From: a virus | Lineage: Duplodnaviria > Caudoviricetes | Virus record (IMG/VR): IMGVR_UViG_3300021379_000808 | Location: 1-50,602 of that record | DNA: 50,602 nucleotides | Reading direction: 5' to 3' (one strand) | Shown: one piece after another, positions 25,231 through 47,752 of the stretch | How positions within the stretch are numbered: position 1 is the first letter of the stretch | Layout: the number at the start of each line of letters is the position of its first letter | Translations under genes and position numbers: made by a program | Notes under the pieces: generated by a model | What the model saw: only the letters and a program-made list of their open reading frames with translations | What the model was told of the DNA's origin: nothing | Database searches by the model: none

Positions 25231-25633
25231 AAGCTATTCGCCTCGCTACATCCCGGGCTCTAGCAGGTGTCTGCTCAGCCCATCTCGAATCGAGAGCTTC
25301 TGCGTGAACTCTCCCCCAGTCCTCAGCCTTGATGGCGTTAATCATCCGCTCAAAGCCAAGTACACCGTCGTAGCCCATCTGATAGGCCATTTCGATGATT
25401 GCCTCGCGTCTGGGTTGATCCAGATCCCTGAACCAATCCAGCTCCTCGAAGCGTCTTGTTAGTTGTTCTGTGTAGTCGATCAGTAGCGCCTCGGCGATGT
25501 GCTCCGGCACACCGTATCCGCCCCGCTCAATCATTGTCCCGTAGCCGATTGTCAGCTTGCCCTGACTGCATTGGTAAGCGTACCGCCTGAAGCCCTCAAA
25601 TCGCTTTAGACGGTCGATAAGACCCTGAGACAT
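25211..25633 (-). CDS. Endolysin (GH24 phage lysozyme)
   Basis: EG.R..AY.C..GKLTIGYG, MAYQMG and DSRWAEQTPARA motifs; likely start MSQGL. Confidence 0.9.
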   Translation of the reverse strand: MSQGLIDRLKRFEGFRRYAYQCSQGKLTIGYGTMIERGGYGVPEHIAEALLIDYTEQLTRRFEELDWFRDLDQPRREAIIEMAYQMGYDGVLGFERMINAIKAEDWGRVHAEALDSRWAEQTPARARDVARRIAYGWTST

Positions 25634-25646
25634 AGGGATGGACCCG

Positions 25647-25817
25647 CTAGTCGTCCTTTCGCTTACGGGCTGTTTTAGAGGCCTTATCGAATGCCTCATC
25701 CGTTGGAGCACCCTTAGAGCCCGGCTTACGCATCCGCTCCTTTGACCCTGCCGCGATACGCTTTCGCTTTGCGTGGATGTTGGCATACAGCCCCGGTCTT
25801 TCCAGTAGCCCGGGCAT
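25647..25817 (-). CDS. Small basic hypothetical phage protein
   Basis: GLYANIHAKRKRI...GAPT motif; TAATG coupling to the upstream gene. Confidence 0.75.
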   Translation of the reverse strand: MPGLLERPGLYANIHAKRKRIAAGSKERMRKPGSKGAPTDEAFDKASKTARKRKDD

Positions 25818-26014
25818 TACTTTTCGCTTACCGGCTGAGTGGTCATGAATCGCAGTACCACAATGCCTGATGCAATCGCGCAACCGATGAAGGCCTGCAC
25901 TGCCGGGTTAGCCGGGATAAAGCCCACGAAGCCCTGAAGCACTGACAGCACCGCAATCGCTACGCCGTACTGAACCGTCCGAGATTTTAGTGCCTGTTTA
26001 ACTGTCATCACCAT
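25817..26014 (-). CDS. Putative holin
   Basis: 65 aa, two hydrophobic helices, LRF.TTQPV; near the endolysin. Confidence 0.7.
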   Translation of the reverse strand: MVMTVKQALKSRTVQYGVAIAVLSVLQGFVGFIPANPAVQAFIGCAIASGIVVLRFMTTQPVSEK

Positions 26015-26295
26015 TTCACCTTATGAGACCAATACCGAGCGCTCAGCTTGCTAGGGTTAGAGTCCTGAGCATTGTGCCGGGCGTAGTAGCTTTTCCGACG
26101 CGCCTTATCCTTGGCCGTCTTTGGATTCTTGCCAGCGCCTTTGACCCCCTGTTGCCCAAAACGGATCGTCTTGACCTGATCGCCTTCCTTCGCGACCACG
26201 ACGTGTGACTTGGTTGGGTGATTGGGTGTGCGCTTTGGCTTGTTAACGCCAGACACGCCTGCGCGCTCAAGCAGACCTTTGATGTCTCTTGCCAT
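26008..26295 (-). CDS. Basic hypothetical phage protein, first late gene
   Basis: NKPKRTP.HPTKSH.V.AK.G...IRFGQQG...SARYWS..VKW; start MARD. Confidence 0.8.
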   Translation of the reverse strand: MARDIKGLLERAGVSGVNKPKRTPNHPTKSHVVVAKEGDQVKTIRFGQQGVKGAGKNPKTAKDKARRKSYYARHNAQDSNPSKLSARYWSHKVKW

Positions 26296-26306
26296 TTCCG
26301 CAACCC

Positions 26307-26333
26307 AAAAAAAAGCCCCGACTCGCGGGGCAA
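26307..26333 (-). terminator. Rho-independent terminator just upstream of the late operon (tR'-like)
   Basis: GCCCCG-CGAGT-CGGGGC followed by T8. Confidence 0.85.
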
Positions 26334-26392
26334 ACAAACTAAGAGGAGTGTTTCAAAAAAACCTGACGGGACGCTGGACGCAATTACCGCCA
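26307..26392 (-). ncRNA. Candidate terminated leader sRNA with anti-RBS seed AAACACUCCUCUUAGUUU
   Basis: Seed is complementary to RBS regions at 26714, 26971, 27513 and 34300-34311 and ends in a terminator; the 5' end is inferred. Confidence 0.55.
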
Positions 26393-26398
26393 GACCCG

Positions 26399-26427
26399 AT
26401 TGTCAACCTTTTAGGTTCTGGAATCAA
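26399..26427 (-). promoter_or_regulatory. Candidate late promoter (pR'-like)
   Basis: TTGATT-17bp-GACAAT; an overlapping TTGACA lacks a well-spaced -10. Confidence 0.4.
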
Positions 26428-26466
26428 CCGATTTAAGACCCACATAAATATTTATTTCTGAAGTGC

Positions 26467-26495
26467 TTGACACAGTAGCGCTACTCGATTACGGT
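26467..26495 (+). promoter_or_regulatory. Sigma70-type promoter of the early accessory operon
   Basis: TTGACA-17bp-TACGGT with an AT-rich upstream element. Confidence 0.7.
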
Positions 26496-26504
26496 TACAC
26501 CTAT

Positions 26505-26519
26505 CAACCAATTTGGTTG
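26505..26519. promoter_or_regulatory. Candidate repressor operator
   Basis: Palindrome CAACCA-ATT-TGGTTG just after the promoter, similar to 34342-34354. Confidence 0.5.
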
Positions 26520-26653
26520 GCTGGCTACGAGGAGCCCAGACCCAAACCCTGCGGGAGACAACCCACCAAACCGGCGACCACTGAGTCAACCAGTGAGAGA
26601 CGACACCAAACGAGCACGATGAGCACCACCACCGGAGACGGCGTGGGAACATA

Positions 26654-26705
26654 GCGTCAACACCTAATGCGAGGTGTTCTGATGATGGCCAGCAGGCCGA
26701 AACGC
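26654..26705 (+). ncRNA. Hammerhead ribozyme, type III
   Basis: GCGU-C^ stem I AACACCU/AGGUGUU, CUGAUGA-U, stem II GGCC/GGCC, GAA-ACGC; predicted cleavage after 26658. Confidence 0.85.
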
Positions 26706-26725
26706 AAAACAACGGAGTGTTACCA

Positions 26726-26911
26726 ATGCAGACCTTTGTATGCAAGGGTCGAGCGGGTAAGTGGTCCTACGGTTACCTTGCCGAGCCCGGCAAGCGAAAC
26801 GTGTGGGTGTACACCAACGGTGAGGTCACATACCGACCGCTTGGTGGAAACAACTTGATGGCCGCTTCAAGCGAAGCCACCACGTTGCACCGCAACTCGC
26901 TCGAGTCCTGA
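26726..26911 (+). CDS. Small hypothetical early protein (61 aa)
   Basis: GGAGTGTT RBS before ATG 26726. Confidence 0.65.
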   Translation: MQTFVCKGRAGKWSYGYLAEPGKRNVWVYTNGEVTYRPLGGNNLMAASSEATTLHRNSLES

Positions 26912-26982
26912 ATTAGATTCGGAGTCTGACCCACTTGGCAACAGAACGGGTCTCCCCTTTTAAAACAACTGGAGTGTTCAAT

Positions 26983-27429
26983 ATGACTACAAAAACATTG
27001 AAGCAAATCAACGCAGAACTCGCAGAGACCTCAGCCCAGCTCGAAGCTTTGGCGGATGTCCTGAGAGAAGCTAAGCAACACGTAGCTGACAAGACCCGGG
27101 AGGTCAGAGAGCTGGAGCGTTCAAGAACCGAGACGGCAGAGCGTGAACGGCGCAACTGGGTGAATCGCAACCGCTCGAAGGCCAAGCGATTAGCGGCCAA
27201 GTACGGTATCGAGATCGAGGACGAGTCGATCAGAGACTACGATGGATATGACCTGCGCCACTGGGTAGGTCAGCCAGACTGGCTTGAAGGTGACGACCCG
27301 CTCACAGATGGTCACTTCAGTCACTGCTGGAGCGACACTGTTTGGCTTGTCGAGTTTTACGCCAAGCATCACCCATCTCACCCAGATCACGAGAACCGTG
27401 AGCACAGGGTTCATAGCCCTCACTGCTAA
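26983..27429 (+). CDS. Hypothetical early protein with N-terminal coiled coil
   Basis: GGAGTGTT RBS before ATG 26983. Confidence 0.8.
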   Translation: MTTKTLKQINAELAETSAQLEALADVLREAKQHVADKTREVRELERSRTETAERERRNWVNRNRSKAKRLAAKYGIEIEDESIRDYDGYDLRHWVGQPDWLEGDDPLTDGHFSHCWSDTVWLVEFYAKHHPSHPDHENREHRVHSPHC

Positions 27430-27430
27430 A

Positions 27431-27490
27431 CCCGTCTGACGATGGCTGGAGGGATACCAGCCGAAACGCCTCCGGGCGTCACGGGAATCC
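27431..27490 (+). ncRNA. Hammerhead ribozyme, type I
   Basis: Stem I CCCGU/ACGGG, CUGACGA-U, stem II GGCUGG/CCAGCC, GAA, stem III ACGCC/GGCGU, GUC^ at 27480; loop II GGAU can pair with AUCC 27487-27490. Confidence 0.9.
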
Positions 27491-27522
27491 ACCCGACAAC
27501 ATACAAAAATTTGGAGTGTTTT

Positions 27523-28383
27523 ATGACTAAGAAAAAAGTTGATGCCTATCAGGTAATCACGGACAAAGTAATCGCGATGCTAGAGACTCACGGGTCAGGC
27601 TGGACTAAGCCTTGGTCTGACAGCCTCGCAGGATCGCCTGTAAGCCTTTCCACCGGCAACCCCTATCGAGGTATCAACCGACTGCTACTCGGCCTTGAGG
27701 GACGTTCTGATGCGCGCTGGGGCACATACAAGGCTTGGTCAGAGAAGGGCGGTCAGGTTCGTAAGGGCGAGAAGGGTACTGCGGTTATCTTCTTTAAGCC
27801 CTTAGAGATTCGAGGTGATGACGGTGAGGTCGAGAAGAAGATCCCCTTTGCCCGTATATACAATGTATTCAATGCCGAGCAAGTTGACGGTATCGAATTG
27901 ATCCAACCTGAAGAGCTGACCCCCATAGAGTTAGATCAGCGTTGCGAGGATTTCATTGCCGAGACTGCCGCGCAAATCCGATTTGGTGGTGACTCTGCGT
28001 TCTACTCCCCGGTTGTCGATTACATCGGTATGCCGAGACCAGAGGCCTTTGAGTCTACTGCCGGTTACTACGGCGTCCTACTGCACGAGCTCACTCACTG
28101 GACTGGTCACTCTACCCGGTGCGACCGCAAGATCCTCAATAGCTTTGGTAACGAGGACTATGCGTTCGAGGAGCTGGTTGCCGAGCTAGGCGCCACCTTC
28201 CTTTGTGCCGATTTAGGTATCGAAATAGAGCCCCGCGAGGATCATGCACAGTATATCGCAAGCTGGCTCAAAGCGCTACGAAACGACAAGAAATTGATCG
28301 TTAAAGCGGCCAAGCAAGCCCAGCTCGCAAGCGAGTTCTTGCACGGCCTCCAAACAGAAAATCAACTAGCAGAGGCCGCATAA
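27523..28383 (+). CDS. ardC: ArdC-like antirestriction protein (ssDNA-binding domain plus zincin metallopeptidase)
   Basis: W.KPW, YRGIN.L.L, W.TY..W...GGQVRKGEKG, VFNAEQ, HELTHWTGH and YAFEELVAE motifs; true start 27523 after the RBS. Confidence 0.92.
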   Translation: MTKKKVDAYQVITDKVIAMLETHGSGWTKPWSDSLAGSPVSLSTGNPYRGINRLLLGLEGRSDARWGTYKAWSEKGGQVRKGEKGTAVIFFKPLEIRGDDGEVEKKIPFARIYNVFNAEQVDGIELIQPEELTPIELDQRCEDFIAETAAQIRFGGDSAFYSPVVDYIGMPRPEAFESTAGYYGVLLHELTHWTGHSTRCDRKILNSFGNEDYAFEELVAELGATFLCADLGIEIEPREDHAQYIASWLKALRNDKKLIVKAAKQAQLASEFLHGLQTENQLAEAA

Positions 28384-28389
28384 GCGGCC
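28374..28389 (+). repeat. Stop-codon hairpin GGCCGCATAAGCGGCC, copy 1
   Basis: Identical to 28703-28718. Confidence 0.8.
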
Positions 28390-28403
28390 CGAGGGACAAG
28401 TAT

Positions 28404-28712
28404 ATGCAACCAATGCAAAAAGAAATCGTTAAAAAAATCGAAGCCTATGAAGGTATGGACCCAGCTAACGTGAGCGTAGCTGACCTGATCGCATACCAAC
28501 TGAGACTTACAACCTTGGTAAGTCGATACAATGCCAAAAACCCAGAACTCCGCCCAGTCCGAATTATGTTCTGCGGTAGTGGCGGCTTGATTGTTCATCT
28601 CGAATACCAGTACCTGAAGGTCTCACTGGAGCGGGTCAATGGGCGCCTCGACTGGCCCGATTCGCGTGATGTTTTGCAGGATTGGTACAACGACTACGAA
28701 CTGGCCGCATAA
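28404..28712 (+). CDS. Hypothetical early protein
   Basis: GAGG RBS; ends in NDYELAA. Confidence 0.75.
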   Translation: MQPMQKEIVKKIEAYEGMDPANVSVADLIAYQLRLTTLVSRYNAKNPELRPVRIMFCGSGGLIVHLEYQYLKVSLERVNGRLDWPDSRDVLQDWYNDYELAA

Positions 28713-28718
28713 GCGGCC
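28703..28718 (+). repeat. Stop-codon hairpin GGCCGCATAAGCGGCC, copy 2
   Basis: Identical to 28374-28389; followed by TTT. Confidence 0.8.
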
Positions 28719-28737
28719 TTTAACTGAGGAGAGAAAA

Positions 28738-29268
28738 ATGTCTAAGATCATCTACAAAGAAATCCAAGTCCACTGGTGTATGGCTCGTTGCTGGGTTGTG
28801 CGAGGAGTGCCATTTGAGGGTATGCACCAAGTACTCGATACCCTGCCAACTCAAAGTCTAGCCATAGACATCGCAAAGCTTCACGCCTTTGGATCTGACC
28901 AGCTACCCCGCAAGGCATTGCAGGTCAGGGTTTTTAAGAAAAGTCACGGGCTCAAACAAATCATATCGCCCCCTGAAGATCTAAGCGAAAAAGTAAGCTC
29001 GCATGAGGAGCTTGTAATGCGCCTAGCGCGAGAATACTGCGAGCGCAGATCTTTCCCTTTCGACATACCGAGCGTTGGCACAACTATCGGAGCGATGGAG
29101 TTGGAGAAGCCGGTGAGTTGGTGGGGATCTGCTCACGATGTCTACGAGTGGGCTCTCCGCCTGCGCGACGAGATCATCGAGATCCGCAACTATATGGCCA
29201 GTCAAGGGCGCGGCCTTCACGACGAGCCTGTCGATAGACAGACAGACTATGTGGGGGGTGCGTTATGA
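28738..29268 (+). CDS. Hypothetical protein
   Basis: GAGGAG RBS before ATG 28738. Confidence 0.75.
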   Translation: MSKIIYKEIQVHWCMARCWVVRGVPFEGMHQVLDTLPTQSLAIDIAKLHAFGSDQLPRKALQVRVFKKSHGLKQIISPPEDLSEKVSSHEELVMRLAREYCERRSFPFDIPSVGTTIGAMELEKPVSWWGSAHDVYEWALRLRDEIIEIRNYMASQGRGLHDEPVDRQTDYVGGAL

Positions 29269-38093: not shown

Positions 38094-38325
38094 ATGGCTT
38101 TATGTAACAGGCACACCTAAGACAACCTTCAGGGGATGGAAGAAGAAGCTCGTTAAAGGACAGCACTATTTCGTTAATGGTCGATCAACTTACGTTGACG
38201 CCAAGGAGATGGACAATTGGCTAAGGGCATCAGGCGCTGGAGAAACAAGTGGCAGTTACGAGCCACAGTTGACGGTAAAGCGCACACCCTCACGCTCGAC
38301 TACCCAGATACTCAAGCTGGTCTGA
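38074..38325 (+). CDS. xis: Excisionase-like protein
   Basis: Small basic wHTH-like protein (G.HY...GR.TYVD...MDNW) upstream of and overlapping int. Confidence 0.65.
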   Translation: MLIHLDKWLYVTGTPKTTFRGWKKKLVKGQHYFVNGRSTYVDAKEMDNWLRASGAGETSGSYEPQLTVKRTPSRSTTQILKLV

Positions 38326-39260
38326 GGAAGGCCGTAAAGGCTAGGAAAGTCTGGCTTGCTCAACTCAAGTCTGGCTGTGTCGAGGATGTGCCTCAGTTTG
38401 GTGTGCTTGCTCAAGAGTACCTACGCCAATCTGACCTAAAGCACTCCACGTATCACGTATACCGTAGAGCGTTAAACCAGTTTTGGATGCCGCATCTAGC
38501 TACGGTTGGCGTGGACCGCATTAAGCCGAGTGTGGTCCGCGCCATACTTAAATCCCACGATGTAACCTCAAAGACAAAACGCAATGCGCTCATACCTTTA
38601 CGCAAGGTGTTCGAGCTGGCTATCGAGGAAGACTACATCGACACTAACCCGGTAGATTCTGTGCGGGTTAGGCGCCACCAGAAGCCCCCGGTTATTCGAT
38701 TCACGCCAGAAGAAAAGGCAAAGATACTCAAGCGCCTTGATGGGGACGGCTACCTGTTCTATCTGATTGCCTTCGAGACCGGGATGAGAACCGGGGAGAT
38801 ACTGGGCCTCAAGTGGGAGGACCACACCGGGGACAATATCCATCTATCAAGATCCATTGTGCGCGGCAGGATTGGATCTCTAAAGACTTACAACGCTAGG
38901 TCAGTGTTCGTATCGCCCAAACTGCGGAAGGTGCTTACAAGTCATCCTGATCGCTTCAAGGGAGGGTTTATATTCGTCACTGCTAACGGCGATTATTGCC
39001 GAGACGATGACAGGTTCAGAAGGGCTTGGCACAAGGCATTAAAGGGAGCGCGAATAACCTATCGAAGGCCATACACTTGCAGGCATACTAGAGCATCAGA
39101 GATGCTGATGGCTGGGGTGGAGCCAGCCTTTGCGGCAAGACAGCTAGGCCATTCAATACAGATGTTCTTAACGGTATACGCAGAGTGGATAGATGGCGTT
39201 AAGGATGTACAGCAAAGAGAGATACTTAAAGCCATAGGGGGCAATGATGCGAGTAGTTAG
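38217..39260 (+). CDS. int: Tyrosine integrase
   Basis: TGMRTGE, K, YTCRHT, LGHS and VYA catalytic motifs; N-terminal arm-binding-like domain; TTG start after AGGAG. Confidence 0.92.
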   Translation: MAKGIRRWRNKWQLRATVDGKAHTLTLDYPDTQAGLRKAVKARKVWLAQLKSGCVEDVPQFGVLAQEYLRQSDLKHSTYHVYRRALNQFWMPHLATVGVDRIKPSVVRAILKSHDVTSKTKRNALIPLRKVFELAIEEDYIDTNPVDSVRVRRHQKPPVIRFTPEEKAKILKRLDGDGYLFYLIAFETGMRTGEILGLKWEDHTGDNIHLSRSIVRGRIGSLKTYNARSVFVSPKLRKVLTSHPDRFKGGFIFVTANGDYCRDDDRFRRAWHKALKGARITYRRPYTCRHTRASEMLMAGVEPAFAARQLGHSIQMFLTVYAEWIDGVKDVQQREILKAIGGNDASS

Positions 39261-39634: not shown

Positions 39635-42600
39635 TTAGCCAGCGCGGTCCTGCATGAATTCATCGTACCGCTTGTTGAAGCGATCAACGATATCGTCCTT
39701 GCTTTCCCTTAGCGCTTCGAGCTGTTGCTCTCTATCGGCAGGCGTTAGGTCGTCTCGATCCCGTATTCTCATCTCACGCTCGCGGATACGACGCAATCGC
39801 TTATAGACGTTATTGGCTTTTGGATACAGCGTTCGTATTCCATTAAAGCCTTCGTCGCTTGCCTTTCTTGCATTAGAGTCAGGCGCGTCATTGTATTCCT
39901 TGCGAGCGTTGATAATCTCCTGTCGCCTTTCGTAGAAGGTGTCGATGTCTCCGTAGTCGGACTGATCCTTACCAACAAGAACCCGAGCAAACGGCACATT
40001 AGCGATCTCCAACTGCCTGCCAGTAACGGGCCTAAATATAGAGTCGCCTGTACCTGTGGCCGTTCTCAATAAACCGCCGCCTGCGTACTCGATAATCTGC
40101 TGTAGAGTCTCTGGGCTAACGTCTGTAGAAATGCCCATAAGCTCGCCAGATCTGTACTCAGATCCGCCGCCAATAACGTCATTAAGGAACTGAGCCACCT
40201 GAACATAAGGCTCTTTGGTTGAAGGCCAGTACAAGTAAGCATCCGCCTTCTGTGCTCCGCCGGGGAAGTTTTCTGGGTAAATCTTCTCACCGAAGTAGTT
40301 AGTGTTTACTGCAAGCTCAGTGACCGGAAGCACAATGCTTGGGCTTATCGTTAGTGCCGCCTGAGCCGCCGCATTTTCCGCCCTGTGCAGACTGAACGGG
40401 GAGAACGACGTTGTGAAGCTAGACACCAAATCGCCAAGAATATTATCCCTTCTGCGCTGTGATCCTTTGAGCGCACCTTCCACCGAGTCGCCAAGATTCC
40501 AGAAGAAGTTGTAACCGTAGGGCAAGGGTAGCTTGTAGTAATCCCCGCCAGATCCGGGCTTCATAATGATGAGATTTCTTTCTCGTATGCCTGCGGGGAT
40601 CTTGTCCCAGAAAGCTTCGCCATCATCATCCTCACCACCCACTTCTCTCATTAGAGAAGCAAACCCAGCTCCGCCAGCAACAATGCCGCCAGCTATCTTC
40701 TGGGCTAGGTTTAGATTTCTCTGCACCTGAATGTTTCCTTGGCTGTTGACCTGAAGAGGGCTCAGTGTCCGCAAGAACTGAGTGGTTCCCTGAACTGCCG
40801 CGTTAAAGAACATATATAGCGAATTAACGAATGTTCCTATCTCGCCCTTGCGGTTAAAGTTCACCGTCATATTCTTGGCTAAGGACGCCGCCTGCTTGCG
40901 AGCAACGCCTGCCTTCCTAGCCTCGATATAGGCCGATAGTCTGACGCCGTTTTCTACTGCGCTGTTGTATTTCTCAACCAGCTCAGCAATCTTAACGCCA
41001 GCCTTCATCAAGTCATTCTTGGTGCCGGGGCCAGCTCTGCCTAGCTTCTTCTCTAGATCTGCGGCAATTGTGTCAACATCTGGAGAGTCAAAGTAACCAG
41101 TCTTTGCGCCGTCGTTAAGAAACTCTTGGTAGTATCGACGATACTCAGTAGCTTCTGGGTCAGAGTCGTCATTAACGGCATCTTGCTTATTGGATGATCT
41201 GATTGCGGCAATAGCCCTTGGCGTACCTGAGACAACTTTACCAGCAATCTGATTACCGTCTAACTTCCCGCCATCCATAGTGGCCTCTGCCATTAGATTC
41301 AGCGCCGCCGCCTGAATATCACGGGCGAAGTTCGTGACCACAAACTGAGGGTTGTATGAGGTATTAACAGATGCCAAGAACCGGGTCATCCCAGCAACAA
41401 CCTTGGTTACTGCGCTCAATCGCTCAGGACCAACATTCTGCATTGCATTAAGCAGTCGCTGATCCTTGACCTTGATGTAATGGACAATGCCATCCCGCTT
41501 GACTGCGTAGTATTTGTCTGACCCTGCCATATTGACCGGACCCTCTCTAACACTTCCGTTACGGAACTGCTCCTCAGTGTCCGGGTTTGCGTCAGTAAAG
41601 ACTTCCCACATATCAGGATCTGGGTTGCCCTCAACAAGATTAAGGAAGGTCTGGCCGACCTCGTTCTTCCTGTTGCGGATGGTCTTCTCTGTGAGATCCG
41701 CAATAACCTGAGATGTTGGGCTCTTCGCTTTGGATCTTCGGCCTAGTGCGCGGCGCGACTCTTTGCCTCGTATGTCAAAGCCCCTGCCTGTTCTAATTCT
41801 ATTGCCGTTAGAATCAACCTCGTCGTCAGCGAATCCCCGCAATGGGATGTAGTTTTCATACATACTCTCCCAAGAACTAACCTCCTCATCCGAGGCTAAG
41901 CCGCCAGACTTAATAAGATCTCGCGTAAGCTGAGTCATTGCGTATACTTGATTGGCAAGTTGGTTGTAGTCTGCCAGCTTCCCGGATCTCTGTACGCGCT
42001 GTATAACCTCTGCCGCTTCAGCGTTAGTCATACCTGAGCCACCGTCAGGTAGCTTGTCATTGATTGCCGCAATCTTACGGTTACGCTCTGGTGCGTGACG
42101 AGCCATCAGGTACTCGTCTAGATCGGCAACGCTAATGCCAGTCTTCTCAAGTAGCTCGACAAACGGACGAATCAGACGAACCTCTAGCTGTCGCAAGTCT
42201 TCTTCGGTCTTACCGTAAAAAGCCTCTTCCGCTAGGTAAGCGTCCTCGTCAAAGTCCAGCTTGCGCTCTTGCGTTTCCTCAATGAACTGCTGAGTGCGCT
42301 TGAGGCCGACCATTTTGTCTTGGAAGGTGCGGATGAATTTATCAGCAATAGTCTCTTCAGGCGGTCGCTTAGGGTAGATTCTCGCCGAGTCCCGCTGGAA
42401 CATTGGCAATCCTTCCTCTGTAACCTTCTGCTTAAACTCATCAGAGATAGGTGCGGCCCAGCCACGAATGCCTGCATCCTGCATGAGCTTCATTCTGAGT
42501 TTTTCTTCAGCTTGCTTTCTTGCGACCTCTACACCTTTGTCGGTGTAAATGTCCATAAAATCAATAGCAAGATAGTCGCTATTAGAAGGGAAAGTGACTG

Positions 42601-45600
42601 AGAAAGTGATCCTGTTGTTGTCGGAGTATTGGTCTCTGTATTTAATCTCTGCTTCGCCTGCGACCTTTAAAGCGTTCTCGTAAGCGGCAGTCGCATCAAG
42701 ACCCTGAACATCCACAGGGTAAGGCTTAACGCCGAGAAGCTTTCCTATCGCGCTAACGTGCTTCTTGTCATAAATCTGCTCGTAGAATCGGCCCCAGCGA
42801 TTGTTCAGCTGAGCGGCGCTTGAAATCATCAAGGCATCCTTGCCCTCCTCCACTGCGGTGATAAGCATCCGCTTGAGAGCAAGCTCCGCATAACGATCTT
42901 CAGTAAAGGGTACGTTTGGTGGAGCGCTTTGTGAATTGGCAAGCCTTCTTCTCGCGTCATCACGAGCCTTAGATTTCTTTCTGTTTTCGACCTCTAGACT
43001 TGCAAGTTCCCGCAGAAACCTATCAAGGTCTGGCTCAAGATCAGTAACCTCTTTAATGCTTCCTAGGTACGTTGCCGATGAAGAGTAGCTAATGTCCTTC
43101 CCCTGAAGCTCATCAGCAAAAGCCTGCCTAGCAATGCGTAAAAAATTATTGTAACTAGGAGTTGGATCTAAAATTCCCGGAGCATCCATTCTGCTCACCC
43201 CAAACAGATCCCCAACAAGCTTGGACACATCAGGGCTCAATAGCAATGCTTTTGCATTCTCCGCTACTGTGTCAATTCTCATTTGCGTACTGGCCATATC
43301 CAAGTCGATTTCATTAAGGGCTTTTTCGTCCCTATCAACCCTAGCCTGATCTCTTGGCCCTCCAGCTCTGCGGATATCACTCTGCCAATCAGACTGCATC
43401 TCCTCGATCATGAGGACATTGCCTAGCGCATTACGTCTATCGGTAGCGAGGACATTAAAAAGTGCGTTTTGCCCAAAGTGGCTTGAGTAGTATTGGCCCC
43501 ACTTGTTGTCAATGGTTGTAACAAACTCCCGGTACTGATCCCAATTCTCTTCTTTGACATCACTCAAGTAGTCTAGAAACTGGACATCATCTCCAGTGGC
43601 TACATACCCATACTCGTTAAGGTAGTTTTGAACCTGAACCTTGGCTTCGTCTAGGTCATAAACAATATCAAAATCACCCGTTTCTCCTCTCTCTGGGGTT
43701 ATTTGAATGCGCCAGCCCATATCATCGCTTCCTGAAATTTGGGCGTATCTGATCCCATCAACATCGGTAAGCAGATCAACGGTGGTGTATGGATCTGAGT
43801 TTATGTAGTCCTCTCGCGCAGTAACCCAAGCAACTTCGTCAATTTCGTTTTCAAACTCTGCCGCCAATTCAGGGTAAACTGTTTTTGCTCCAAGCTCCTT
43901 CACAAAAGAATAAACACCAGCCTCAGCGAACGACCCCCTGCTTAGGTATTCTTCTTGGGCTCTCGCGGTCACATCCTCATCGAATACGCCGCTTGATAAA
44001 AAGTCATAAACCTTTTGCTGATTTTCAAAAATAAAGTTGCTAATTACATCGCCAGCTCGACCCGCAAAGTCGCCCTGCTTTATCTCGTACTGGATGTCAT
44101 CCCAGATATACTCGTAGTATTCCTCGCTGTCTTGTATTTCAGGCTCACTGTACTCTAGCCCATCTTCGCTAATCTCAAATCCAGCCTGAGTTGTGGACTC
44201 AACGTCCTCCTCTAACTGTGGCGCCTCATCCCGCAAGAACTCAATCACCTCATCGCGAGTAAAACGACGGCTGGGGTCTTCGGTTAGGAACTGCTCAATC
44301 TCAGTGTACTGAGCCTCATCTTTTTTGATGCCCTTCCCTTTGAGGAAAGAAAAGATCTGGTCTCCACGAACGCTGGCGTCTGGGTTTTTCTTTGAAGGCT
44401 TAAAGATTTTATCGCCTTGGTCAATGATGACCTGCTCAGTGTTGGAGTACAGCTTTAGAGGGGTTTGCTTTGCTCTGGTGCGCTCGCCCATAATAAATGA
44501 TGGACGACCCTCTTGAGCGTTAGTCTGGTTGTTTAAAAAATTGTTCCGAGCTCTTTTTGCTACTAACGAAATATCACTTGCTCGCATACGCGATAGCTTC
44601 AAGAATGTGTTGTTGCGGAACCACTCGCGGATAGCACCAATAGCCTCGCGGGTACGTTGCTGTAACTTCTTAGAACCCTGCTGTCCTGTGTAAGCAAGCA
44701 TCTCGTTCACAAGAACTGCGTTGCGAGTATCTTGGTCTAAGCTGGAACCTTTCATTCCGCTAATATAAGGGCGCACATTAGCCTCAATGCCAAGCTCTCT
44801 AGCCAGCTTATCAAAGCCTTTCTGTCCACCCATTGCGGTCCACATACGATTCAGCGCTTTGTTGACGCCCTGATCTCGGTACATATCCATCACGCCGCCG
44901 TGAGTGCCTTCGTGTAGAAGCGCCTCTTCAACCTGCGATTCAGTCGCGAGCTTACCCTTGACGAGGTATACTGTCCCTCTATGGTAAACCGCGCTAATGT
45001 CCGCTCCATCGGAGCCCTGATCTCTTGCCGCTTGCTGGATTTCTTCCGGAAGCTCCGCAAAAGAAGAGCGCACGTCTACTCGATTACGGGCATCCCCGTC
45101 CTGACCGACGACCCTATCGAGGACAGAATTGAATTGTTCATCGTTGATGACGGGTCTTCGAGTGGCTCCTCTCTGGAATGAAGTGTCTAAACCTCCGTCT
45201 TCCTGAATGCCTCCAATCTCTGCATCACTACCTGTAGCTTGTCTCTCGCCGAAAGCTTCAGCTCCGGTCTGATCTCCAATGGGCGGCTGTAAAGTTGCTC
45301 TTCCTGATCCCTCGTTAAACGATTCAACATCTCGCTCTTCGGATTCGACAAGGCTTGCTTCTTGGGTTGGCTCTCTTTGCGATCCATAGCTGGCATCAAA
45401 AGACTCCTGATAATATTGGTCAACGAATGCTATTTCGTCGTCAGTTAATGGGCCGAACTCATCCTGAAGCTCAATAAGAGTTCGTGATATTTCTTCCTGC
45501 TCAACTTCTAAGCTAGGAATATCCGCTCTGCTATCGCCAACGAATACGCGATCATTAGACTGGATGGCCGTTGTGAAAAGATCCAAGACTTCGTTGGCTG

Positions 45601-47752
45601 TTGGGCGCTCTGGGAAGAAGCCATTTTCCGCAAGCTTCTCTCCCATATCATCAAAGCTCAGGCCATTCCTTCTTACGGGTCTTGCCCGTCCTGAGTAGCC
45701 CCTAAATGATTCTGGGTCTATACCCTGAGTAATCGCCTCGTCAGTTTGTATGCCGCCAAGTCGAGCGATTGCCGTTAGAACGTCAGTGTCTTGTGCGCTA
45801 GTTGATCGTGGGGGCACTTCCTGAGCTTGCTCAATGCGATCCTCAATCTCGATTAAGCGCGACTCCATCTCTGGTGCAGATGCCGCCTCATATGATTCTC
45901 GGAGTCCCTGCGTTGTGTCGCGAATCTCAGGCTCGGGCTGTGCCGCTTGATTAGTTTGGTCAATAAAGTTATTAACCGACTCAGGGTTTGCCTGTCTACG
46001 CTCGCGTCTGAATCCAGCAAGCGCAAAGCGCTCTGTGTTTGGATCTTGGAATACTTCCCAGTTGAACCCCGGCTCCGCCTTCTGACGGCTCTTCATTGCC
46101 GCGTCAGCGCCCTTTCTGGTAGCAAAGCCATCACCCCTAGATCCTTGGTAAATCGTGTCTGGAGCGCCTTCTATGGGCTCCTGATAGATGACGTTATCTT
46201 GGGTTAGAAGTGGGCGACGTTGAGTCCTAACTACTGGACCTTGCTCGACGTATGAGGCATCGAAATTAACGTCTGTGTCTGCGGTTATGACCGGCCCTTC
46301 CAAGGGCTCACTTGGATCTCGAACAGGAGGCTGACGCAAGAACTCCTGAGACATCTCAGTGCCGACAATCGCGTTAGCTCGCTCAATGAGTCTGGCTCGC
46401 AAGCCCTCATCTGCTGTGCCTTGTGCGCGGTCATATATAGCTTGTGCGTTGCGGAGGCGAGTGGCTCGCTCTGGCTGGTTTACCCTATCGGCGAAAAGTA
46501 TCTCTTCTGTTAAGTCAAAGGGTAACTGGGGAACTTCTTGCTGGGGCTGGAAAGGCGCTGGCGTAACAATCGGTTGGAAGGGTGTTGGCTGTAGCGTGTC
46601 CTGATCGAACTGATTAGCAAGCTCCGGTAGCTGTATTGTGGAAGGAGCTGGCTCCTCGATATTCATACGCTCGCGAAGAGCCGAAAGGTCTGTATTAGCA
46701 AAGCCTCCAGATGCGGCAGTCGCGGCATCGAGATTGTCGCCGCCGTTGGCTACTGCATCTGCTCTAGCGGCTTCTGCGTTTTCGCTGGCCTCCTGCATTG
46801 GAGAGGAGAGCCCAGCAACACCACCGCCCAGTATGCCTCCACCAAGCGCGCCAAGACCCGCCGCCTGACCGACGCCCTCAAAAGTTTCCCGCGTTGGGTC
46901 AATAGGCTGTACGGCAATGTTTCCTGCAATCTGACCGCCGCCTTCTTCAAGCGTCTCTTGCAGTGACTCGCTACCGGCGCCCTTCAGAGCGCGAGAGAAA
47001 AATCCATCGCCTTTAACGCCGCCTCTGGCTAGGCTTCTTTCGATAGTGTTCGGCAAAACACCAGCAGTAACGCCAGATATAACTCCAGATATGCTGGCCG
47101 CTTTGCGCGAGGCATCAAGGGCGATCTCATTCTTTGCTTCTTCTCTACCCACTTGGTCTGATAAAGCAATGAAGTCTGCGTTTTGATTCCAGATATCATC
47201 CGGCAATGCCTTGAGGTCGTCGAACACACTCCCGCCAACATCGCCAGCTTGCAGTGCGCCGCCAGTAACCACACCGGCTCCAGCGCCAACTCTTGCAGAT
47301 TTCGTTAGAAGAGATGCCCCCTTCGCAACAGCACCTCCGGGTACTGCCATTGGAGCCTGCTCAAGAACAAAGTTACCAAGTAGATCAAGATCGCTAATAG
47401 TTCCCCAAACAGCCTCGCCTGCCTTTGCAAGCTGACCATCAGCAGAGTCAATGCGAGCTTGAAGATCGGCCTGCTTCTGCAAAAGCTCGTCAGTCTTAAA
47501 TTGCTCGTAAAACTCACGTCCACGCTCCGCTTGGCGAGTGGCCATATTGTCCATATCGCCAGATACAAGACCATACAGACTACCCACAGAACCAAGGAGA
47601 TTGTTTGCGCCTATACCGAATGATGCAAAAATATTGCTTTTAAAGGGCTCGGGCTCAGGCTGAGCTTCAAATTCGTCAAAGAACCCGCCATAAGGGCTGT
47701 TGCTAGATGGTCCGTCGAACTCATCAAAAAAACCGCCGTACTTGGCCATCAA
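39635..47752 (-). CDS. Giant polyvalent (ejected) protein with HEXXH metallopeptidase and LPD38-like C-terminus
   Basis: 2705 aa; LLHEGTHGG, IEEMQSDW, AKNMTVNFNRKG...LYMFFNAAVQG and KLPLPYG motifs. Confidence 0.85.
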   Translation of the reverse strand: MMAKYGGFFDEFDGPSSNSPYGGFFDEFEAQPEPEPFKSNIFASFGIGANNLLGSVGSLYGLVSGDMDNMATRQAERGREFYEQFKTDELLQKQADLQARIDSADGQLAKAGEAVWGTISDLDLLGNFVLEQAPMAVPGGAVAKGASLLTKSARVGAGAGVVTGGALQAGDVGGSVFDDLKALPDDIWNQNADFIALSDQVGREEAKNEIALDASRKAASISGVISGVTAGVLPNTIERSLARGGVKGDGFFSRALKGAGSESLQETLEEGGGQIAGNIAVQPIDPTRETFEGVGQAAGLGALGGGILGGGVAGLSSPMQEASENAEAARADAVANGGDNLDAATAASGGFANTDLSALRERMNIEEPAPSTIQLPELANQFDQDTLQPTPFQPIVTPAPFQPQQEVPQLPFDLTEEILFADRVNQPERATRLRNAQAIYDRAQGTADEGLRARLIERANAIVGTEMSQEFLRQPPVRDPSEPLEGPVITADTDVNFDASYVEQGPVVRTQRRPLLTQDNVIYQEPIEGAPDTIYQGSRGDGFATRKGADAAMKSRQKAEPGFNWEVFQDPNTERFALAGFRRERRQANPESVNNFIDQTNQAAQPEPEIRDTTQGLRESYEAASAPEMESRLIEIEDRIEQAQEVPPRSTSAQDTDVLTAIARLGGIQTDEAITQGIDPESFRGYSGRARPVRRNGLSFDDMGEKLAENGFFPERPTANEVLDLFTTAIQSNDRVFVGDSRADIPSLEVEQEEISRTLIELQDEFGPLTDDEIAFVDQYYQESFDASYGSQREPTQEASLVESEERDVESFNEGSGRATLQPPIGDQTGAEAFGERQATGSDAEIGGIQEDGGLDTSFQRGATRRPVINDEQFNSVLDRVVGQDGDARNRVDVRSSFAELPEEIQQAARDQGSDGADISAVYHRGTVYLVKGKLATESQVEEALLHEGTHGGVMDMYRDQGVNKALNRMWTAMGGQKGFDKLARELGIEANVRPYISGMKGSSLDQDTRNAVLVNEMLAYTGQQGSKKLQQRTREAIGAIREWFRNNTFLKLSRMRASDISLVAKRARNNFLNNQTNAQEGRPSFIMGERTRAKQTPLKLYSNTEQVIIDQGDKIFKPSKKNPDASVRGDQIFSFLKGKGIKKDEAQYTEIEQFLTEDPSRRFTRDEVIEFLRDEAPQLEEDVESTTQAGFEISEDGLEYSEPEIQDSEEYYEYIWDDIQYEIKQGDFAGRAGDVISNFIFENQQKVYDFLSSGVFDEDVTARAQEEYLSRGSFAEAGVYSFVKELGAKTVYPELAAEFENEIDEVAWVTAREDYINSDPYTTVDLLTDVDGIRYAQISGSDDMGWRIQITPERGETGDFDIVYDLDEAKVQVQNYLNEYGYVATGDDVQFLDYLSDVKEENWDQYREFVTTIDNKWGQYYSSHFGQNALFNVLATDRRNALGNVLMIEEMQSDWQSDIRRAGGPRDQARVDRDEKALNEIDLDMASTQMRIDTVAENAKALLLSPDVSKLVGDLFGVSRMDAPGILDPTPSYNNFLRIARQAFADELQGKDISYSSSATYLGSIKEVTDLEPDLDRFLRELASLEVENRKKSKARDDARRRLANSQSAPPNVPFTEDRYAELALKRMLITAVEEGKDALMISSAAQLNNRWGRFYEQIYDKKHVSAIGKLLGVKPYPVDVQGLDATAAYENALKVAGEAEIKYRDQYSDNNRITFSVTFPSNSDYLAIDFMDIYTDKGVEVARKQAEEKLRMKLMQDAGIRGWAAPISDEFKQKVTEEGLPMFQRDSARIYPKRPPEETIADKFIRTFQDKMVGLKRTQQFIEETQERKLDFDEDAYLAEEAFYGKTEEDLRQLEVRLIRPFVELLEKTGISVADLDEYLMARHAPERNRKIAAINDKLPDGGSGMTNAEAAEVIQRVQRSGKLADYNQLANQVYAMTQLTRDLIKSGGLASDEEVSSWESMYENYIPLRGFADDEVDSNGNRIRTGRGFDIRGKESRRALGRRSKAKSPTSQVIADLTEKTIRNRKNEVGQTFLNLVEGNPDPDMWEVFTDANPDTEEQFRNGSVREGPVNMAGSDKYYAVKRDGIVHYIKVKDQRLLNAMQNVGPERLSAVTKVVAGMTRFLASVNTSYNPQFVVTNFARDIQAAALNLMAEATMDGGKLDGNQIAGKVVSGTPRAIAAIRSSNKQDAVNDDSDPEATEYRRYYQEFLNDGAKTGYFDSPDVDTIAADLEKKLGRAGPGTKNDLMKAGVKIAELVEKYNSAVENGVRLSAYIEARKAGVARKQAASLAKNMTVNFNRKGEIGTFVNSLYMFFNAAVQGTTQFLRTLSPLQVNSQGNIQVQRNLNLAQKIAGGIVAGGAGFASLMREVGGEDDDGEAFWDKIPAGIRERNLIIMKPGSGGDYYKLPLPYGYNFFWNLGDSVEGALKGSQRRRDNILGDLVSSFTTSFSPFSLHRAENAAAQAALTISPSIVLPVTELAVNTNYFGEKIYPENFPGGAQKADAYLYWPSTKEPYVQVAQFLNDVIGGGSEYRSGELMGISTDVSPETLQQIIEYAGGGLLRTATGTGDSIFRPVTGRQLEIANVPFARVLVGKDQSDYGDIDTFYERRQEIINARKEYNDAPDSNARKASDEGFNGIRTLYPKANNVYKRLRRIREREMRIRDRDDLTPADREQQLEALRESKDDIVDRFNKRYDEFMQDRAG

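Follow-up and report, generated by a model that had tools for sequence, protein, structure and literature searches.

A Type III Hammerhead with an Inserted U at the Head of an Operon in a Marine Phage Genome, a Probable Insulator by Predicted Cleavage

Are early genes that move horizontally between phages insulated in their expression by hammerheads, and what does a U inserted beside A9 do to catalysis? Both questions bear on a locus in a 50,602-bp phage genome from IMG/VR, a record that is complete looking (CheckV 100%) and that was analyzed over its whole length (the window). Here, we describe the hammerhead at the head of an operon in this genome, HH1, and its neighborhood. We consider it probable that HH1, which precedes the genes of an operon in a temperate marine phage, is a genuine hammerhead of type III and that it would insulate by cleavage in the 5' untranslated region. 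Papers marked as excerpts are cited from partial text.

The phage encodes a terminase, a portal, a tail fibre, a RecE-like exonuclease, a primase/helicase, and an integrase, together with a 2,704-amino-acid polyvalent protein with an LPD38 domain. Because terminase, portal, tail fibre, integrase, and other phage genes are encoded, the 50.6-kb genome is read as that of a temperate tailed phage. Runs holding parts of the phage are, by recorded source, seawater, marine, or aquatic metagenomes, except for one power-plant metagenome (small shares each), and a cultured-phage collection gave one weak match only, with 7% of the query covered. The minus-strand genes finish close to 26337, and a terminator-like hairpin occupies 26331-26315; beyond 26337 a plus-strand operon begins with ORF1, ORF2, an ArdC-like gene, and more. 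Its closest relative and the main comparison below, L127, is one of 19 IMG/VR loci with an ArdC relative, and its ArdC is 96% identical. The features of the window are as follows.

26497-26653, plus strand: presumed non-coding leader upstream of the predicted cleavage site, about 99% identical in L127
26654-26705, plus strand: HH1, type III hammerhead ribozyme (descriptor scan, model R1, Rfam Hammerhead_3)
26726-26911, plus strand: ORF1 (61 amino acids), first cistron after HH1, an orphan for which IMG/VR held no relative
26983-27429, plus strand: ORF2 (148 amino acids), with seven homologue loci in IMG/VR
27431-27485, plus strand: HH2, type I hammerhead, predicted cut C27480/A27481
27523-28383, plus strand: ArdC-like anti-restriction gene, downstream of HH2 (Pfam and PHROG)
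38217-39260, plus strand: tyrosine-integrase-like gene
39635-47752, minus strand: polyvalent LPD38 protein, adjoining the tyrosine-integrase-like gene

The ArdC-like gene matched Pfam ArdcN (2.3e-29) and MPTase-PolyVal (4.4e-50) and PHROG 7245 (anti-restriction protein, 2.4e-83); its protein thus also bears a polyvalent-type metallopeptidase domain. Because ArdC, like the LPD38 protein, is polyvalent-type, the phage may have several anti-defence functions that it delivers or expresses early. ORF2 had no match to a PHROGs or Pfam family, and the protein atlas returned no usable hit. The motif GGAGTGTT precedes all three starts (ORF1, ORF2, and the ArdC-like gene); a fourth copy, at 26345-26352, is upstream of the candidate promoter and is followed by no start codon. 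Downstream of ORF1, a bulged hairpin (26921-26955) is followed by TTTT (26958-26961), and ORF1, hairpin, and TTTT together (26726-26961) have the look of a small insertion that ends in a weak terminator.

The earlier note on this DNA had described a type III hammerhead at 26654-26705, lying just before the first ribosome-binding site. Parsing of the sequence returned every part as it had been given, with coordinates as follows.

26654-26657, plus strand: 16.x strand of stem III, GCGU, pairing with 26702-26705
26658, plus strand: C17, with the predicted scissile bond C26658/A26659
26659-26678, plus strand: stem I hairpin, 7 bp, AACACCU (26659-26665) pairing with AGGUGUU (26672-26678), loop AAUGCG (26666-26671)
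26679-26685, plus strand: core C3-A9, CUGAUGA
26686, plus strand: extra U between A9 and G10.1, an insertion in the Rfam alignment
26687-26698, plus strand: stem II hairpin GGCC/GGCC (26687-26690 with 26695-26698), loop AGCA, first pair G26687-C26698 (G10.1-C11.1)
26699-26705, plus strand: G12 A13 A14 (26699-26701) and the 15.x strand of stem III, ACGC (26702-26705)

Core positions C3-A9 and G12-A14, the A15.1-U16.1 pair (A26702-U26657), and a base other than G at position 17 (C26658) are all present, as are the three helices (stem I, 7 bp; stem II, 4 bp; stem III, 4 bp including A15.1-U16.1). Stem III is flanked by an A-A mismatch after its 4 bp. U26686 is unable to pair, since the base after stem II is G12, and with this single unpaired U and the rest of the core intact HH1 falls in the inserted-base class of the CChMVd(+) type. 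HH1 is type III by both sequence and structure and precedes the first cistron, within its 5' untranslated region; the Shine-Dalgarno GGAG of ORF1 (26714-26717) and its ATG (26726) follow directly. In DNA letters, part of the core and the extra U also spell ATGATG (26682-26687), in a frame open to 26858. HH2 starts 2 nucleotides (nt) past the ORF2 stop, with a U following its CUGACGA; as had been observed before, it has the other permutation (type I) and stems unlike those of HH1.

The window was scanned with a descriptor that required the core (with an optional single inserted base), a minimum of 4 bp in stem I and of 3 bp in each of stems II and III, and type I/III order; on both strands of the whole window, only HH1 and HH2 matched. 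Dinucleotide-preserving shuffles (n = 300) gave a mean of 0.043 descriptor matches per window and any match in 10/300, with a single match as strong as stems I, II, and III of at least 5, 4, and 4 bp across all 300. To build a covariance model (R1), we took seven type III hammerheads from other phages (L120, L125, L126, and L078; seven-row seed alignment A4), leaving out both the window and L127; MAFFT alignments of type III copies (A2 and A3) put stem III out of register and were not used for modelling. Run with filters off on both strands, R1 matched exactly 26654-26705 at 32.5 bits (E value, 8.3e-7), and its runner-up, at 10.6 bits, was the core of the 27431 copy. Given the shuffles and the R1 score, chance is excluded for HH1.

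Rfam gave zero matches at gathering score in the whole window and no hammerhead in an E-value search of 1.4 kb. In a 91-nt search, RF00008 (Hammerhead_3) matched HH1 at 27.8 bits (E value, 1.4e-4), under its gathering score of 48.5, with the alignment running the full length of the model (1-54 of 54) and every core position matched. Compared with that model, HH1 has a longer loop I and a shorter loop II, and its extra U falls in an insert state. The L127 copy of HH1 scored 35.7 bits, also under the cut-off, and HH2 had no hammerhead family match even in a 91-nt search. Judged by its sequence, 26654-26705 is a genuine hammerhead, one more among the thousands known.

Across 99 sources, R1 gave 31 matches, and the three helices covary across this hammerhead family of HH1. 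In the family alignment (31 sequences, fitted to the R1 structure, including six of the seven seed sequences and some forced matches of low score on type I copies), 97.4% of cells are in standard pairs and 11 of the 14 pairs changed on both sides. Zero of 500 shuffles reached the observed values, and sliding the 3' partners by 1 to 3 columns lowered pairing to 36 to 47%. Hammerheads need a tertiary contact of stems or loops I and II to be active at physiological Mg2+. In HH1, UGC in loop I is complementary to GCA in loop II, three Watson-Crick pairs that are within chance for a single copy. Among type III copies, loop I-loop II complementarity of at least 3 nt was found in 15 of 28, versus 6.9 expected (0/2,000 shuffles reached 15), and the pairs vary by lineage (AGCA/UGCU, AUGC/GCAU, UCCU/AGGA, and, in HH1, UGC/GCA).

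The genes that follow HH1 differ between close relatives. Leader and HH1 are almost identical in the window and L127, as are HH2 and ArdC; from the ribosome-binding site of ORF1 to the first base of HH2 the two are unrelated (window 26706-27430 versus L127 2351-2908), and L127 carries two other small genes between the ribozymes, the stop codon of the second abutting HH2. The L127 copy of HH1 differs at four points: a stem I pair is G-U instead of A-U, N7 is A instead of U, the extra U is missing, and stem III reaches 6 bp. None of the invariant core bases is changed. ORF1 is missing from the relatives. In contigs of four runs (four studies; 26300-28400), leader and HH1 are present and ORF1 is skipped, the joints running from 26682, 26705, or 26709 to 26961 or 26967; two of the four have 475 or 568 extra letters between the ORF2 end and 27429, and contig X5 spells the rest of the hammerhead without the extra U, like L127. 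The variable segment is therefore bounded by the two ribozymes, which bracket ORF1-ORF2 as a gene-flanking cluster of differing content. The cassette breakpoints fall at the ribosome-binding motif AAAACAAC(T)GGAGTGTT, which is repeated, and no more than 2 nt from the HH2 5' edge.

The ORF2 homologues at the seven IMG/VR loci are 45 to 55% identical, and all seven loci have one to three hammerheads beside the gene on the same strand, of type III or I, with or without an inserted base. Up to three hammerheads of mixed type occur within about 3 kb on the gene strand (L126, 305-3338; L120, 2018-3520; L125, 358-898). A general link between ArdC and hammerheads was considered and rejected: a hammerhead was present in 16/86 ArdC loci and ended at most 250 nt upstream of the gene in 4/81 eligible loci (9 of 76 metagenome loci, where the match was without the ArdC N terminus, were dropped from the count). 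JGI metagenome contigs held 76 ArdC relatives (best, 63% identical) and no further copy of HH1; bacterial genome contigs held 13, all at most 47% identical, and no host or prophage copy.

Near-identical copies of HH2 with a covarying stem III occur in L124 and L126. Loop II of HH2, GGAU (27452-27455), is complementary to AUCC (27487-27490) just 3' of stem I, so that a pseudoknot is likely from the sequence; the pairing is kept by compensatory changes (GAAU/AUUC in L134, 5799-5854 plus flank, and GUGGAU/AUCCAC in L128). In the L127 copy of HH2 (L127 2909-2963), GA replaces UG after the core, with a canonical G10.1-C11.1 pair and then a bulged A instead of the extra U; the descriptor, which disallows bulges, missed this copy.

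The U after A9 had been presented as a departure from the usual core in both ribozymes. It is a real departure from the textbook core, in HH1 and HH2 alike, but it is neither new nor rare. In an unbiased set of 102 protein-anchored loci (L120-L221; 432,598 bp) with 22 distinct hammerheads, a base is inserted after A9 in 9 of the 22, each time a U. An IMG/VR pattern scan (core, then U, then a G-C stem II), which yields a set biased by its pattern, gave at least 117 loci; among the 117 pattern matches listed, at least 87 fold as complete hammerheads by the descriptor, mostly type I, and most of those that fold fully carry the inserted base. Within each of five pairs of copies that share a stem I sequence, the extra U is present on one side and absent on the other (window/L127, L122/L121 with L123, L126b/L125a, L125b/L120b, and L120a/L126a). 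The idea of one extra-U state per genome was rejected, both states occurring in L120, L124, L125, L126, L128, and L134. Two natural hammerheads carry U at the A9/G10.1 insertion position. We infer that phage hammerheads commonly carry and tolerate the extra U, and that it is no defect. It sits at A9/G10.1, which we take to be a divalent-metal site, and some loss of HH1 rate may therefore follow from it.

The reading that we prefer joins these observations in one mechanism. In the nascent RNA, stems I and II would fold locally, the short stem III would close the three-way junction, a loop I-loop II contact (UGC with GCA) would help dock the stems, and the core would catalyze transesterification at C26658/A26659, a cut predicted from membership in the hammerhead class. 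The leader product would end in a 2',3'-cyclic phosphate, and the downstream mRNA would carry a 5'-OH and two compact hairpins, 9 nt before the Shine-Dalgarno of the first cistron. HH1 and HH2 would together cut the transcript into the leader, an ORF1-ORF2 segment (26659-27480, 822 nt), and a message for ArdC and the downstream genes starting at A27481. Because HH1 is type III, its bulk would stay on the mRNA 5' end, and because HH2 is type I, its bulk would stay on the 3' end of the 822-nt fragment. The translation and stability of each segment would then become independent of its neighbours, as with RiboJ, an engineered hammerhead-based insulator. Such independence would be of use here, since relatives exchange the genes that lie between the two ribozymes.

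A wider proposal, which we put forward tentatively and regard as rather doubtful, is that in this group of marine temperate phages hammerhead pairs mark the borders of exchangeable cassettes as natural insulators, with extra-U switching tuning the cleavage rate. In three independent comparisons (L127 and contigs X1 and X15), the variable segment starts right after HH1 and the ribosome-binding motif and ends at most 2 nt from the 5' edge of HH2. Were the proposal true, any gene between the ribozymes would be expressed independently of its neighbours, and extra-U switching, as in the five matched pairs, would set the ratio of processed to unprocessed mRNA. Both the breakpoints that coincide with ribozyme edges and the frequent, repeatedly switching U insertion are possibly worth pursuit.

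Against insulation by cleavage, HH1 might be a hammerhead descendant that is crippled or very slow, now mainly a pair of 5'-UTR hairpins or in decay; we consider this unlikely. Stems I and II formed in both the minimum-energy and the centroid fold. The 4-bp stem III, whose failure to form the earlier note had named as grounds for doubt, does pair in the sequence, but it was absent from the minimum-energy fold of the isolated 65 nt, where a CGUCA/UGAUG helix formed instead that, in this model, would sequester the core and cleavage site. Such a competing GUC-N/CUGANGA helix should, however, be possible in most if not nearly all hammerheads, and weak stems III are very common in natural ones (PMC3088659, excerpt). 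The extra U adds to the case for impairment, as does the Rfam score, 8 bits under that of the L127 copy (which lacks the extra U and has a 6-bp stem III), and the orphan ORF1 insertion just downstream implies a recently rearranged lineage. Yet the invariant core bases are all intact, and an insertion that is found in 9/22 related hammerheads and is always U suggests selection rather than decay. Moreover, the CChMVd(+) hammerhead has an extra A (A10) between A9 and G10.1, and there, C or G was detrimental while U at the same position raised trans-cleavage 3- to 4-fold (PMC3705267, excerpt, summarizing De la Pena & Flores 2001).

HH1 could also be active with the released RNA as its purpose, either the leader of about 157 nt as a small RNA or the 822-nt piece ligated or circularized by a host ligase, e.g., RtcB; this we hold to be very unlikely. 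The leader is nearly identical in L127 and non-coding, the latter because a 1-nt indel in L127 breaks the only long frame (63 codons, 26463-26654), and two ribozymes do bracket a defined 822-nt segment. L127 is close overall, however, so that conservation of the leader says little, and the leader is no more stable than its shuffles (z = 0.06) and had no match beyond L127 among the fetched loci, so that nothing indicates a small-RNA function for it. For the larger piece, Perreault et al. considered spliced or circular products possible in their system and looked for them, and in the excerpted text detected none (PMC3088659); here, the two permutations imply that joined ends would rebuild no hammerhead.

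The transcript start from which a discrete leader had been predicted gained no support from the promoter scan. TTGACA is present at 26467-26472, the best -10 at 17-nt spacing is a poor TACGGT, and a scan of 25500-29000 returned zero sigma-70-like sites; because the promoter is unsupported, the leader length of about 155 to 157 nt is a guess. Two perfect palindromes, AGTAGCGCTACT (26474-26485) and CAACCAAtTTGGTTG (26505-26519), lie around or just after the candidate -35/-10 and could be operator sites for a phage repressor. In the window, neither the palindrome CAACCAANTTGGTTG nor, elsewhere, CAACCAAtTTGGTTG repeats beyond chance.

That HH1 is a chance motif, or part of a coding frame with ATGs at 26682 and 26685 in the core, is scarcely credible: 26667-26858 is open and the 3' strand of stem I holds a Shine-Dalgarno-like GAGGTG, but the shuffles and the independent model R1 exclude chance, the L127 core (CUGAAGA-GG) has no ATG and is followed by unrelated sequence, and most of the frame is deleted in the four contigs.

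Insulation by cleavage at HH1 thus stays our preferred reading, and the locus offers a clean natural test case for it, with a leader and a downstream ribozyme of different permutations, a cassette that differs between close relatives, and, in L127, a difference from the window in extra-U presence in both ribozymes. RiboJ, whose ribozyme derives from the sTRSV satellite, provides the first comparison. Placed in a 5' UTR, this self-cleaving ribozyme raised protein 2- to 10-fold and transcript about 2-fold (PMC6206723, excerpt). Its place, like that of HH1, is after the promoter or leader and ahead of the ribosome-binding site; it removes the variable upstream RNA and leaves a 5' hairpin. RiboJ is synthetic, whereas HH1 is a natural phage element whose insulating role is predicted only. 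The CChMVd(+) hammerhead holds its inserted base at the same core position as HH1, and its U version was the most active in vitro (PMC3705267, excerpt). It belongs to a plant viroid and its natural base is A, whereas in phages it is U that occurs naturally, and it does so commonly in both type I and type III hammerheads. Our literature search returned no passage on phage hammerheads with a base inserted at A9/G10.1; the figures, Dataset S1, or supplements of PMC3088659, a source seen as an excerpt, may well show such insertions.

Close parallels are also found in the hammerhead clusters of prophages, where the flanked genes are not the same from case to case (Perreault et al. 2011, PMC3088659, excerpt). 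Cleavage of such clusters was shown in vitro and in E. coli, and the authors proposed that long transcripts are thereby divided into mRNAs of gene length. A 2019 review leaves the role of phage and bacterial hammerheads open and allows that they may process polycistronic transcripts (PMC6765202, excerpt). Phage hammerheads (gene-flanking since 2011), clusters around variable genes, proximity to anti-restriction genes, and the A9/G10.1 insertion are each already in print. Like the window, the 2011 clusters have mixed permutations on the coding strand, one or two small variable genes bracketed, and an anti-restriction neighbour, and one set, a triple arrangement in Agrobacterium tumefaciens, flanks the anti-restriction gene ardA (PMC3088659, excerpt). 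Compared with that case, the gene here is ArdC-like and not ardA, the phage is marine and uncultured, HH1 lies in the leader ahead of the first cistron, and cleavage is predicted.
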